Shown: positions 1,447 to 53,715 of the stretch, piece after piece
How positions within the stretch are numbered: position 1 is the first letter of the stretch
How the letters are laid out: every line of letters begins with the position of its first letter
DNA from: Dictyostelium discoideum
Lineage: Eukaryota
NCBI GenBank assembly: GCA_000004695.1
Contig: CM000154.2
Coordinates: 640,001 to 704,000 of the forward strand
Direction of reading: 5' to 3'
Length of the DNA: 64,000 bases
The notes under the pieces: model-generated
Seen by the model: the letters and a program-made list of their open reading frames with translations, nothing else
What the model was told of the DNA's origin: nothing
The model's database searches: none
Made by a program: the position numbers and the translations under genes

Positions 1447-4230
<2,784 letters not shown>

Positions 4231-6250: not shown

Positions 6251-6451
6251 TAATTAATATTTACTCTTTTCAATTGAAGTGACTTCACATGCATTGTCAA
6301 TTAATTTTAATATGTTTGATTGTGACCTTTTCCAATGTTGCTGTATCTTTTTTCTATCTGTTAACCATTCTAATAATTTATTACCTGGAACATCAATAAT
6401 CTCTTGATCATTTCCAACATTTAAAGTTTTAGTTTTAATTCTTGTTGTCAT
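4807..6451 (-). CDS. hypothetical 4-exon gene: complement(join(4807..5526,5620..5893,5980..6178,6265..6451)), about 459 aa; the C-terminal half is poly-Asn and Glu/Gln-rich
   Basis: Three minus-strand ORFs (6254-6451, 5964-6194, 4807-5523) join with frame continuity. The donors are GTAAAT, GTATGT and GTAAGT; the acceptors are aaag, caag and atag. Phase bookkeeping closes at every junction. Confidence 0.5.
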
Positions 6452-6515
6452 TATTTTTATATTATTCTAAATAAAAAGAAAATTTTTTAATTGAAGTGAA
6501 AAATTTTAAAAAAAA

Positions 6516-10439: not shown

Positions 10440-11721
10440 ATGAGTGTAATAGAACCTTTATTATTTGAACACAAACCTCATCAAAAAATTGGTTTTGAAG
10501 ATAAAATTAAATTCTCACCAAAAGCAATTGATGAATTAGTAAATAAATTTAAAACATTAAAACAAAATGAAGAAGATAATCCAAAAATTGTAAGTTTTTT
10601 TTTTTTTTTTTTTTTTTTTGGTTTAAACATAATATGTTATTAATTTATTTCTATATATTTTATAGAAAAAATATATTAAGAAATATGGTATTATTTTACC
10701 ATTTGAAAATTGTAGATGTTCACTATTTCAAATATTATCAGAAAAAGTGGAATTAAAAGGTCATTGTGGTAATATTATTTATTTATTATCAATATTTGAA
10801 CAATTTTTAGAATTATTAGATCAATTTAGTGAGATGGCATCAAAATCGGCAAGGGAACGTGTTTCATTCCTAATGATTGAAAAGAAGATTGAAGATATTG
10901 AATTAACTCATGAGAAATTCAAAGTGTTGGCATCAAATATTATTGATTCCATAAAAAATGGTACAACACCATTGGAGGAGAACGGTATCGTTCAATTGAA
11001 TTCATCAAAAATTAAAACCAGAGTTAAAAAGAATTTATTGGTTGGATTGGCATCGACCAGTACTATTTTTGGTGTTGCTGCCATTTCAGTTGGTATTGTT
11101 TTAGCACCATTCACGGGTGGCATTACATTATTATCAACTATTGCTGGTATTAGTACAATTGTTGCTGGTGCCGCCACAACTGGTTTAGGTACAATTACAG
11201 CTATAGCCGGTACAAGATATTTTAATCAAAAGGAAATTGATATCACCAAATCAATTCAAGCCTTGGAAATGTTAGCTAGTCAAGTAGAAGTATTGGCCGC
11301 ATCAATTAGTAAAAATCAAAATATTAAAACTCAATTAGATGAAGATTTTGAACAATTGATTCAAAACGAATTGGAATTCTTAAATTTATTCTGTGGTATT
11401 TGCTACGAAATCTTAAAGGATCCAGTTATCATACCATTACCAAATAACAATAGAGGTCAATATGAAATCTATTGTAGATGTTGTATAACTGATTGGAATA
11501 GTTCTGCTTCAACTTTACCAAAATCAAGATTACCTTTTAAAATTTCTGATTTCCAAGAACCTGATTTTAGAACTAAAGGTGAAGTTCTCAGATTTACTGA
11601 TTTAGTTAATCAAATGAATTTAAGAATTTCAAAAATTATTGATACTCAAAAAAATGAAAAACAATTTGGATCATCATCTAATCTTACTAAAACTAATTCA
11701 AATACTCTTATAAATAAATAA
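10440..11721 (+). CDS. membrane protein with tandem glycine-zipper (GxxxG-type) transmembrane hairpins and a C-terminal Cys-rich zinc-finger-like motif; 2 exons: join(10440..10589,10666..11721)
   Basis: A GTAAGT donor at 10590 and a tatag acceptor at 10665 give an in-frame join. The residues GVAAISVGIVLAPFTGGITLLSTIAGISTIVAGAATTGLGTITAIAG form glycine-zipper segments. The C-terminal end reads FCGICYEILKDPVIIPLPNNNRGQYEIYCRCCITDW, which is C-x2-C...C-x-C-C. Confidence 0.55.
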
Positions 11722-11850
11722 AATATCTATTGTACATTAATAAACTTGAAAAAAAATAAAAAAAAATAAAAAAAAAATTACATCGTTTTTCGTTTTTTCA
11801 TTGTTTCGTTTTTTCATTTTTTTTTTTTTTTTTTTTTTTTTTCAAAAATG

Positions 11851-11858
11851 TCCCACAA
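11851..11858 (+). promoter_or_regulatory. DUSE-like motif TCCCACAA (Dictyostelium upstream sequence element of ncRNA genes)
   Basis: Exact match to the [A/T]CCCA[C/T]AA consensus, lying in an ORF-free, GC-richer spacer. The match is seen in sequence; the function is inferred. Confidence 0.3.
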
Positions 11859-11927
11859 TTATATACAATGGAAGGTTGTAGTTATAGAGAAAGAAGCATT
11901 CATTTCAAAAAATTCGAACAATTAAAT

Positions 11928-11981
11928 GGGTACCCAAATACTCTATCTTAAATTTAATTGGATAGAGTCGTTCCTGTACCC
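11928..11981 (+). ncRNA. candidate small structured RNA: stem-loop GGGTAC/GTACCC plus ACTCTATC/GATAGAGT with a 13-nt loop, about 70 bp downstream of the DUSE-like motif
   Basis: A perfect 8-bp inner inverted repeat plus a 6-bp outer stem, seen directly. It lies in an intergenic region between two convergent genes. No coding potential. Confidence 0.25.
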
Positions 11982-12392
11982 AAGAAAAACCTTTACATAA
12001 TGGTAAAACACTGACTTGAATGCACCTCGCGATTTCTTGTTGGTACTTGGATTGTATTACATTCCCTAAAAATTAAAATTAAAAGAAAAAACAAATAAAT
12101 AAAATTAAAAATATTTTTATTGAAAAAAAAAACTTTTTGTTTGTGAGTTAATTATTTTTATAAGAATAGTTACATTATTTAAATGTTTTTTTTATTTATT
12201 TATTATTTTTAATTTATTCCTCAAAAAATAAATAAATAAATAATAAATAATTAAATTAATTTTATTAACTTATGAATATATATTTTAATATTTAAAAAAA
12301 AAAAAATAATAATTAATTTTATTAATAATATGAATTAATAAATATTTATTTATGTATATATATTTTATTTTTTTATTTTATTTTTTTTTTTT

Positions 12393-33096: not shown

Positions 33097-33889
33097 TATT
33101 TTTATTTATTTATTTATTTATCTATTTATTTATTTATTTATTTGATTTTTGTTTACTTTTGCAAAAGTGATGGTTTTTTTTTTTTTTTTTATTTTATTTT
33201 ATACTGGACATTTTTTTAAAATATAAAATTTATTGTATGTAGATTAAACCACCCATTTTAAGTAATTATTTGACTTGTTAGATCATTTTTGAATAAAGTT
33301 TGAAATTAAAGTTATTTTTAATACTTTAATACTTTCCAAATTATAAAAAAAAAAATAAAAAAATAAAAAAAAAAATAAAAAAAAAAAAAAAATTTCAACC
33401 AACAATACCCGTCTCCAATTAATTTTCGAAAAATTCTGAACTTACACCAATATTGTAATCCAAATACCTCATCAAGACAATCCGATTTTTGATGAATTTT
33501 CAATTTTCCTACTTTTATGAATTTAAAAATAAAATTATCATCATCATCACAAAAAGCCTTTATTTAAAAAAAAAAAAAAAAAAAAAAAAATGCAGTTCGC
33601 TAAAATAAAAAGACATCAAAAAAAAAAAAAAAAAAAATTTATATATTTTTAAAAATAAATATATATATATAATTTTTATATATTAAAAAATTTCAAACTA
33701 ATATATTTTTTTTTTTAAAAAACATTGATGGTTGGTTGTTATTAAAATGATAATGCATATAAAAATTTCAAAATTTAGTTTGTTTTCTTAAAAATTTTCA
33801 TTTTTGTTTGCGAAAAAATTGATATTTTTTTTTTTTCGAAAAGACCCATAAAAAACAAAAAATGTTAATCAATTGCCCTTAAATTATAA

Positions 33890-34804
33890 ATTTTAAACAT
33901 ATGTTGTTGGGAATTATTAGGACATCAGGTTTAAAACCTATTCAGACACCAGAATACAATTTGAATTGAGCGGGCAACGTTCCTTTCACTCTGCACTACA
34001 TCAGCATTACTAGAGAGAAAGGTTGAAAAACCTCTATCGAAGGTGGTGGAACTGCTGAGAAGTAACAGCAATAAATAAAACATTCAAACCGATAGATGAG
34101 AGGTTCAAAATCCATCCAGTTAGTAGGGACTAAAAAACTACAAAACATAAACCCGATCCGATACCTAAGACTCCTTTTTTTTTTTTTTTTTTTTTTTTTA
34201 ATAAATCAAATAAGGTGAGATACAACACAGCAATACCCAAAGTATTCATAAACATCAACAGCATTTCTCACCAAAAAGGTAGAAACACCCTCTTCAGATT
34301 CTTCTCAAGATCACTTCCAGGTATCAACCACGAAAGAGACACCAGATGCAAGATCTGTGGCCACCTATTCAGAGACCCTTATTCTCACCTCTTCACTCTA
34401 TGCCAAGATATCCTAGATATTGAAAAAACCATCATATCAACAGTTAACAAACTATCATTCATCAAAATCCACAGATGGTCAATGGAAACCTTAGACATAT
34501 CAAAATACAACAGAACTGAGAGAATCTTCCCCAATCTCATAGGAATAATAGCACACCAATTATGGAAGATAATCTGTCACAAATTGTTCAACACTGATGA
34601 AAGCAAACCAGAGCCAAAATTCGAACAAAAGGTCATAGAAACAGAATTACTAAATCTCATCGAAACTGAAAAATTCATCACACTAAAGAAAATCAAACAC
34701 GACGAAGCAATACTAAAAAACACCAATCAAGATCTTCACAAATACAAATTCAACAAAGCCTGGCAAACCCCAGCAGCTCCGAACCCTCTTCCAATTTAAG
34801 TAGT

Positions 34805-52602: not shown

Positions 52603-53149
52603 TTTTTTTTTGTTTTAGTTTTTTTAGAAATGAGAGTTTTTAAAATGAATTTTAATAATAAGAGTTTAAAGAGAATAATTGTACAAAGGCAAATTAAAGT
52701 TTGGCCAATGTAGGGGAAAAATAAAGTTTAAGTTTTATTAATTTTGTTTTGTATATGTAATAATATTTATTATTGATATGACAAAAATAAAAAAAAAAAA
52801 ATTTTGTTTAAATAGTTTTCCTTTGGCCAAAAAAAAAATATTTGGGAAAATAGAAAGAAAATATATTATAATTTTAATATAAAAAAAAAAACAACCCCCC
52901 AATCAATATTAATTTTTACAAAGACATCAATTCTGAACATATTTTCAATTTCATTTTTTTTTTATATAAAAAAAGAAAACTCAAAAACCAAAGAAAAAAA
53001 AAAAGTCCTTTCCAAACTATTTCTTTTAAAATATTAAATCTTTTTTCAATCTAATGTTATCAAAAAAAACTTTTTACATTACATTTTTTTAAAAAAAAAA
53101 AAAAAAAAAACTCCCATAATTTTTAAAATTAATTAAAAATGTTCTAATT

Positions 53150-53293
53150 TAATTTTAAAAATGACATTATTTTAATAGGGTGGCCTTACCAGCATCAAAT
53201 TCTATCCTTTCGAGACCCATTTGGTGGGATGTGTGGAGAAATCCATACAGTTGGTTCAATTCCAATCTTGAAAACAAATAAATCTTGCCATCT

Positions 53294-53340
<47 letters not shown>

Positions 53341-53715
53341 TGTTCTAATTTAATTTTAAAAATGACATTATTTTAATAGGGTGGCCTTACCAGCATCAAA
53401 TTTTATCCTTTCGAGACCCATTTGGTGGGATGTGTGGAGAAATCCATACAGTTGGTTTGATTCTAATCTTGAAATCAAATAAATCTTACCATCTGTTTTT
53501 ATCGACACTGAGTTTGGTGTATTTTATTTGGTAATAATTGCATTATTGCTTACTAAAATTAGGTTGTTATTATTGGTGCTTTTAGACTTTTTTGATTAGG
53601 TGAGGGATTTTCTTTCTTTTTTCCCAAAAAAATTTATTAAAAAAAAAATTATAAAAAATAAAATAAAACATTCAAAATAATGGGTTCAAATCTTGGTCTG
53701 ACCACGAATTAACAA
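53150..53715 (+). mobile_element. ORF-less retroelement-like unit: two tandem copies of an approximately 185-bp module (53150-53335, 53336-53520) plus about 190 bp ending in tcttggtctgaccacgaatt; possibly a TRE5-type A/A/B/C-module derivative
   Basis: The direct repeat is seen (about 90 % identity between copies; the first copy ends in T30). The 3' motif is shared with the end of the element at 35005-35040. GC content is above the host background. There is no coding capacity. Confidence 0.35.

Follow-up and report, generated by a model that had tools for sequence, protein, structure and literature searches.

We describe a locus of Dictyostelium discoideum AX4, placed between DDB_G0287879 and exoc5, which is predicted to be a gene for a box H/ACA snoRNA; we estimate the probability of this reading at about 0.82. 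It is found in the 64-kb window, the whole stretch of DNA which was analysed and to which all positions refer. Its architecture, conservation, strand, promoter motif and complementarity to rRNA are read directly from the sequences compared, which indicate that the locus is a real conserved non-coding RNA gene. An earlier note on the same DNA had already suggested a gene for a small ncRNA. One part of that proposal stands, a DUSE-associated, non-coding and structured RNA gene; its size and extent do not. An RNA of 55–65 nt had been expected, but the conserved unit reaches about 85 nt past the hairpin first noticed, up to an ACA box, so that the predicted RNA has two hairpins and a length of about 150 nt.

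The locus and the architecture of the RNA

The ORF upstream of the RNA block is DDB_G0287879 of D. discoideum AX4 (100% identity), and the downstream neighbour is a homologue of exocyst Sec10/exoc5 on the minus strand. These neighbouring genes are convergent: the RNA block is found between both 3′ ends, 190 nt past the stop codon of one of them and 330 nt past that of the other. The spacer between them had been given as 210 bp, which has to be corrected: the inter-ORF distance is 671 bp (11722–12392), and a size of about 215 bp suits only the GC-richer island. The high GC content attributed to the spacer is clearly apparent, with values of 0.26–0.30 in 200-nt windows versus 0.04–0.20 in the neighbouring intergenic DNA. 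The spacer had also been described as free of ORFs, and indeed no ORF longer than 33 aa overlaps the RNA block. We found no second copy (paralogue) of the RNA within the 64-kb window.

The features of the gene are collected in Table 1. The predicted 5′ limit corresponds to the onset of contiguous invariance. The 3′ limit (12064) is also placed by conservation and is taken as the ACA plus 3 nt, the usual distance of this box from the mature 3′ end in H/ACA RNAs being 3 nt; invariance stops at 12066, 5 nt past the ACA.

Table 1. Features of the predicted H/ACA snoRNA gene, with positions in the window
Feature	Positions	Strand	Remarks
DUSE promoter element TCCCACAA	11851–11858	+	exact match to [AT]CCCA[CT]AA
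Predicted mature H/ACA snoRNA, ~150 nt	11914–12064	+	ends placed by conservation
5′ leader UCGAACAAUUAAAU	11914–11927	+	invariant; role unexplained
5′ hairpin	11928–11981	+	MFE fold and RNAalifold
5′ hairpin, lower stem GGGTAC / GTACCC	11928–11933 / 11976–11981	+	
5′ hairpin, pocket CCAAAU / CGUUCCU	11934–11939 / 11969–11975	+	no variable position
5′ hairpin, upper stem ACTCTATC / GATAGAGT	11940–11947 / 11961–11968	+	
5′ hairpin, loop, 13 nt	11948–11960	+	
H box AGAAAA (ANANNA)	11983–11988	+	invariant in four species
3′ hairpin	11994–12056	+	upper stem from MFE fold and RNAalifold
3′ hairpin, lower stem	11994–11997 and 12000–12001 / 12051–12056	+	hand-assigned, invariant
3′ hairpin, pocket GGUAAAAC / ACUUGG	12002–12009 / 12045–12050	+	invariant
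3′ hairpin guide, 5′ strand GGUAAAAC	12002–12009	+	pairs with rRNA 5′-GUUUUACC-3′ (yeast 25S 2977–2984)
3′ hairpin guide, 3′ strand ACUUGG	12045–12050	+	ACUUG pairs with rRNA 5′-CAGGU-3′ (2970–2974)
3′ hairpin, upper stem	12010–12015 / 12039–12044	+	changes all G:U-compatible
3′ hairpin, apical part	12016–12038	+	variable
ACA box	12059–12061	+	invariant

The two-tier hairpin of the earlier note, with its stems and 13-nt loop, was found at 11928–11981 just as described. It begins 69 nt past the end of the octamer, in agreement with the 70 bp which had been given. The best reading of its internal loop (CCAAAT / CGTTCCT) is that of a pocket for pseudouridylation. The lower stem of the 3′ hairpin, formed by UACA + AU and AU + UGUA, is short (4 + 2 bp) and has a bulge of 2–3 nt. 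In box H/ACA RNAs the canonical spacing from the top of the pocket, where the target U is positioned, to the H or ACA box is 14–16 nt. Both hairpins of the candidate have 14 nt between the last base of the upper stem and the box (11969–11982 and 12045–12058). The sequence hallmarks of an H/ACA RNA are all found here: pocketed hairpins, an ANANNA sequence in the hinge, an ACA and the 14-nt spacings.

Complementarity with ribosomal RNA

The target of an H/ACA pocket follows the rule 5′-[complement of the 3′ pocket strand]-U-N-[complement of the 5′ pocket strand]-3′. For the 3′ pocket the predicted target is ..CAGGU-U-A-GUUUUACC. In the target scan GGUAAAAC forms eight contiguous Watson-Crick pairs with rRNA, and ACUUG forms five contiguous pairs with CAGGU, one of them G:U, which places U2975 (yeast numbering) in the pocket. 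Targets were tested on the rDNA of other eukaryotes, 120 metagenomic loci which contain the D. discoideum 26S forward primer, so that the assignment depends on the universality of this rRNA segment. The D. discoideum 26S reverse primer is absent from all 120 loci with up to 4 mismatches.

When every U was scanned, the site GACAGGU[U]AGUUUUACC ranked first, with 5 + 8 = 13 bp, in each of the eight complete rDNA units listed, and the runners-up in this contiguous-pair scan had at most 10 bp. It is also the top site of the 3′ pocket in five out of five units by a weighted score, which was devised after the locus had been seen. The target motif is exact in every one of the 31 loci carrying this LSU region; in one of them it lies inside an Rfam LSU match, at model positions 2922–3401. 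Shuffled pockets reach 13 bp in 1.9–2.7% of the trials.

The target U corresponds to U2975 of yeast 25S rRNA: this is the only offset within ±60 nt which fits eight modified-base identities (positions 2921, 2922, 2923, 2944, 2946, 2948, 2959 and 2975). We take U2975 to be located in H93, beside the peptidyl-transferase centre. The pseudouridine Psi2975 of yeast is fully modified and is guided by snR42 (PMC5699541; PMC13015370). It is rather probable that the 3′ pocket guides a pseudouridine at the equivalent of U2975, as it is suggested by this complementarity.

The 5′ pocket behaves differently under each rule. The strict target [AG]GG[AG][AG][CT]GU-N-[AG]UUUGG had no match in the rDNA searched, and by the contiguous-pair rule the score was no better than in shuffles. 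A weighted, mismatch-tolerant score gives the equivalent of U2944 as the best site in four units out of five and as the second one in the fifth. In the pairing, GGGAACG-U-G-AGCUGG, one side has 7 bp, and in the other a 2-nt mismatch separates 1 bp from 3 bp. This U is found 31 nt upstream of the U2975 equivalent. In yeast Psi2944 is the site of snR37 and is modified only partially (PMC5699541; PMC13015370). We tentatively propose the U2944 equivalent as target of the 5′ pocket; the assignment is tentative, since the scan covered the rDNA of other eukaryotes and the rRNA of Dictyostelium may have a perfect target of its own.

The 5′ leader has several complementarities of its own. Of its 15 scored positions (11913–11927) only 11913 varies among the four species compared. 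Its segment GAACAAUU is complementary over 8 bp to LSU 2918–2925 (GAUUGUUC), a segment which belongs to the A-loop side and precedes the U2944 site by 19 nt; by itself this match is not significant, since each rDNA unit has 1–9 other matches of at least 8 bp. RNAalifold pairs ACAAUU of the leader (11918–11923) with GAUUGU (12050–12055), not the canonical lower stem of hairpin 2; both pairings are invariant, with no covariation for either of them. The leader is also complementary to the apical loop of hairpin 1 at 11952–11960 (CAAUUAAAU / AUUUAAUUG), in AX4 only: a loop base varies without compensation and this pairing is probably due to chance. None of the three complementarities, with GAUUGU, with the apical loop and with LSU, is statistically compelling by itself. 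One might imagine that leader, 5′ pocket and 3′ pocket grip LSU 2918–2925, H90 (U2944) and H93 (U2975), the RNA being at the same time a modifier and a folding clamp. We consider this idea speculative and improbable; if it were true, an RNA of about 150 nt would cover jobs for which yeast needs two RNAs, snR42 and the scaffolding snR37 of 386 nt.

The presence of an H/ACA-type RNA does not by itself fix its function. It could be an orphan, a chaperone of rRNA folding or a guide for another RNA, for example a snRNA or a Dictyostelium-specific rRNA segment. Such roles have precedents in yeast, where half of the H/ACA snoRNAs use one hairpin only and snR37 also scaffolds rRNA (PMC13015370); in the candidate, the 5′ pocket has no clean target, and the invariant leader, with its 8-bp match to LSU 2918–2925, is unexplained. 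What speaks against them is the 13-bp bipartite match at a site which is pseudouridylated in yeast, with the correct 14-nt geometry and invariant guide bases. A rough arithmetic, by which a coincidence is unlikely, multiplies about 2–3%, for a match of at least 13 bp, by about 2–3%, for its landing on a known pseudouridine site of yeast. We consider an H/ACA-type RNA which does not guide the predicted site unlikely.

Conservation, strand and promoter

Syntenic loci were reached through the orthologues of DDB_G0287879 in D. cf. discoideum, D. citrinum and D. firmibasis, and the block is present in all three species. Identities with AX4 were calculated by segment and are given here in this order of species. 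In the upstream flank they are 60%, 50% and 46%, in the DUSE region 100%, 89% and 95%, in the spacer from the DUSE to the RNA 88%, 55% and 51%, in the RNA block 98%, 94% and 87%, and in the downstream flank 78%, 53% and 40%. All 27 pocket positions and all nine box positions are constant among the four species. The apical part of hairpin 2 has 10 of the 19 variable positions, and the sole indel is found in the bulge of this hairpin.

The structure is kept as well. Standard pairs are found in 98.4% of the structure cells in the four species, versus 27–50% with slid partners, and in the 5′ hairpin all the cells are paired. The earlier note had proposed to look for a conserved hairpin with compensatory changes in D. 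purpureum and other dictyostelids: the three species compared with AX4 have kept the hairpin, and the exoc5 locus of D. purpureum has no copy. In D. firmibasis there is a compensatory change from U:A to C:G in the lower stem of hairpin 1. In its upper stem C:G becomes U:G in two species, and the one-sided stem changes are all G:U-compatible. In a shuffle control the observed covariation score was reached in 31 cases out of 500; these statistics are modest, since only four close relatives are compared and the majority of the stem pairs show no change. Without manual input, RNAalifold finds both hairpin 1 and the upper stem of hairpin 2.

The RNA is assigned to the plus strand, since several of its pairs are G:U, which on the opposite strand would be A-C mismatches. 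The same strand is favoured by the orientation of the DUSE and by the fold z-scores. The stable fold anticipated earlier is well supported: 161 nt of the plus strand have −35.3 kcal/mol with z = −3.46, and none of 200 shuffles is as good. The fold of the minus strand is unremarkable (z = −1.35).

These data also bear on a shorter product, the 5′ hairpin alone (about 55–65 nt), be it a DUSE-driven RNA from some new class or a precursor resembling those of miRNAs. No other element is as stable as this hairpin, which dominates the MFE fold, and it has a weak resemblance to the mir-7371 precursor model, which is sub-threshold (18 bits versus a gathering score of 62.6, E = 3.1). Nevertheless invariance does not stop with the hairpin but extends over a further 85 nt, to a point just past the ACA, and the bases of the internal loop are fixed while stem bases change. 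Downstream there are an H box, a second pocketed hairpin, an ACA and the 13-bp match with rRNA. We consider a product limited to the hairpin very unlikely.

Next to exoc5 in D. purpureum we found no copy of the RNA: this gene is followed by a spacer of 224 bp (GL870978.1, 9386–9610) which consists of ordinary AT-rich DNA, with no GC-rich block. The gene downstream of exoc5 is of the AAA/MgsA type, it is not an orthologue of DDB_G0287879, and the orthologue search returned no DDB_G0287879 orthologue from D. purpureum. Since the block is absent from this exoc5 locus, the snoRNA must be elsewhere if it is found in D. purpureum. The JGI contig with the closest exoc5 ends at the stop codon. A peculiarity of the D. 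citrinum locus is a microsatellite (TAA)n / (TAATA)n of about 200 bp (6289–6500), which starts right after the stop codon of the DDB_G0287879 orthologue; it has been gained in this species and is absent from the other three.

The octamer TCCCACAA is present at 11851–11858 on the plus strand, as had been stated. Its frequency in the window is at the level of chance: [AT]CCCA[CT]AA is found 8 times, versus 10.4 ± 3.0 expected from shuffles, and enrichment is ruled out. The octamer is therefore informative only through its position and conservation. In the four species GTCCCACAA is unchanged, while the 51 nt on its 3′ side have merely 51–55% identity in D. citrinum and D. firmibasis. From the start of the DUSE to the start of the conserved block (11914, placed by conservation) there are 63 nt, and the distance reported for the DUSE is roughly 60 nt upstream of the RNA start (PMC7919456). 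A sense octamer at the distance from the RNA which is usual in DUSE genes is found here, with an RNA start defined by conservation. Each 11-kb orthologous locus has a single DUSE-like match on the plus strand, 74–76 nt upstream of hairpin 1. The DUSE is used by both Pol II and Pol III genes (PMC7919456), and the ACA is not followed directly by a T-run, the first one on its 3′ side being found at about 12113; either polymerase may transcribe this gene.

The block might also be a cis-element of the flanking genes, such as a 3′-UTR or termination element, given its location between the 3′ ends of two convergent genes. Such an element would not explain an invariant DUSE with the right orientation and distance, separated from the block by diverged DNA, nor a structure which is kept with G:U asymmetry. 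The H/ACA grammar and the rRNA complementarity would be left unexplained as well, and exoc5 of D. purpureum lacks the element. We consider this reading very unlikely as well.

The grammar was searched for in the form of stems with G:C content and minimum lengths of 4 and 6 bp, pockets of 4–12 nt, a spacing of 14–16 nt, ANANNA in the hinge and an ACA. In both strands of the 64-kb window (128 kb) there is one match, at the RNA locus. From 60 block-wise dinucleotide shuffles we expect 0.15 matches per 128 kb, or about 2×10^-4 in a given 200-nt stretch of one strand; the grammar was devised after the locus had been seen, and these expectations are indicative and not a clean P value. The three other species have one match per 11-kb orthologous locus, in the homologous place. 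If the motifs had come together merely by chance in AT-rich DNA, one could quote for this the chance frequency of the octamer, the abundance of ANANNA and ACA in such sequences and the 21 ACA triplets which follow an acceptable pocketed hairpin in the window. This reading is effectively refuted by the rarity of the full grammar and by an island-like conservation in four species which cannot be attributed to chance.

Blocks are also found downstream of two other DUSE-like octamers of the window. At 33844–33851 (plus strand) there is ACCCATAA, in AT-rich DNA. About 57 nt to its 3′ side starts a GC-richer block of about 270 nt (approximately 33901–34175, GC about 0.39), which is followed from 34176 by a long T-run resembling a Pol III terminator. 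We found no Rfam match at 33844–34190 even at E ≤ 1; this region is possibly a further unclassified DUSE-driven ncRNA gene. The third octamer, TCCCATAA, is at 53112–53119 (plus strand). About 66 nt to its 3′ side there is a block of about 120 nt (53178–53294), in which GGTTCAATTCC resembles the T-arm of a tRNA; after the block comes a T-run of about 40 nt. The unit 53120–53299, of 180 nt, is tandemly repeated at 53321–53500 with 93% identity. At 53112–53500 Rfam gives only sub-threshold matches (tRNA-Sec, 21 bits; class I RNA, 21 bits) and ARAGORN detects no tRNA.

Relation to known RNAs and significance

Rfam includes the class I model (RF01414) and the DdR snoRNA families. A permissive search (E ≤ 10) of positions 11600–12300 gave nothing meaningful, and at the gathering threshold, over the whole window, there was no match at the locus. 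The suspicion that the RNA, if real, would be of a different class was well founded: class I RNAs are defined by a length of 42–65 nt, a short terminal stem, an 11-nt motif similar to CCTTACAGCAA and RF01414. The covariance-model search proposed earlier detected no RF01414 match at E ≤ 10 in 11600–12300 and the conserved unit has about 150 nt, which rules out class I; the RNA reads as a box H/ACA snoRNA. The candidate lacks the 11-nt motif and the short terminal stem and is about three times longer than class I RNAs. With the DUSE-driven ncRNAs in general, class I RNAs and spliceosomal snRNAs, it shares an octamer about 60 nt upstream, conserved across species.

The H/ACA snoRNA sno18 (DdR-18) belongs to the same organism and RNA class, but it is a separate gene: a search of the window for its two primers, tolerating up to 3 mismatches, found neither of them, and Rfam gave no match to DdR18. 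It was described in 2019 as the sole H/ACA snoRNA identified in D. discoideum (PMC6912284). In 2022 the known set was given as 17 box C/D and one H/ACA snoRNA, citing Aspegren 2004, in a paper which analysed 47 box C/D snoRNAs of D. discoideum (PMC8817022). The D. firmibasis genome paper of 2024 counts 47 snoRNAs in D. discoideum, which equals the box C/D total of PMC8817022. With respect to this literature of 2019, 2022 and 2024 the locus is a predicted second H/ACA gene of Dictyostelium, beyond sno18. It may already figure as an unnamed candidate in a screen for GC islands and DUSE such as that of Larsson. In the literature searched we found no map of pseudouridines in Dictyostelium rRNA.

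The closest counterparts of the candidate by predicted function are found in yeast. It resembles snR42 in the target nucleotide (the second U of GGUUAG, H93), in the RNA class and in the logic of a bipartite guide; it differs by the lack of any detectable sequence or covariance-model similarity to the Rfam H/ACA families. It could be either a functional analogue of snR42 or a highly diverged orthologue. Yeast snR37 and human SNORA10 share with it the U which is the best-scoring target of the 5′ pocket, in the region of the peptidyl-transferase centre: snR37 guides Psi2944 of 25S rRNA, and SNORA10 is predicted for U4521 of 28S rRNA. However, snR37 has 386 nt with extra branches, binds Upa1-Upa2 and has no 3′ pocket (PMC13015370), whereas the candidate is compact and canonical, with about 150 nt, and its pairing at U2944 has one strong and one weak side.

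The steps from transcription to RNP assembly and modification would then be the following. Transcription driven by the DUSE at about −63 would yield an RNA with a length of about 150 nt; this RNA would fold into two pocketed hairpins with the H box AGAAAA between them and the ACA at the end. Dyskerin/Cbf5, Nop10, Nhp2 and Gar1, which have homologues in D. discoideum (PMC6912284), would bind each hairpin. The 3′ pocket would pair with 26S rRNA on either side of the U2975 equivalent and dyskerin would convert this U to pseudouridine; the 5′ pocket may act likewise at the U2944 equivalent, with weaker pairing. Nothing in the candidate is mechanistically unexpected.

The search recipe which comes out of this locus can be applied to dictyostelids: one would look for GC-richer islands which fit the H/ACA grammar, have a DUSE about 60 nt before them and are conserved in D. 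citrinum as well as in D. firmibasis. Should the DUSE be functional at this locus, the known DUSE regulon would extend to H/ACA snoRNAs. If both pockets are functional, a single guide would serve two sites which in yeast are served by two snoRNAs. The candidate also provides a specific and testable target prediction at the catalytic centre of the ribosome. Eukaryotic rRNAs usually bear dozens of pseudouridines, each of which requires an H/ACA guide, and the predicted gene would start to fill a gap, the missing H/ACA repertoire of Amoebozoa.
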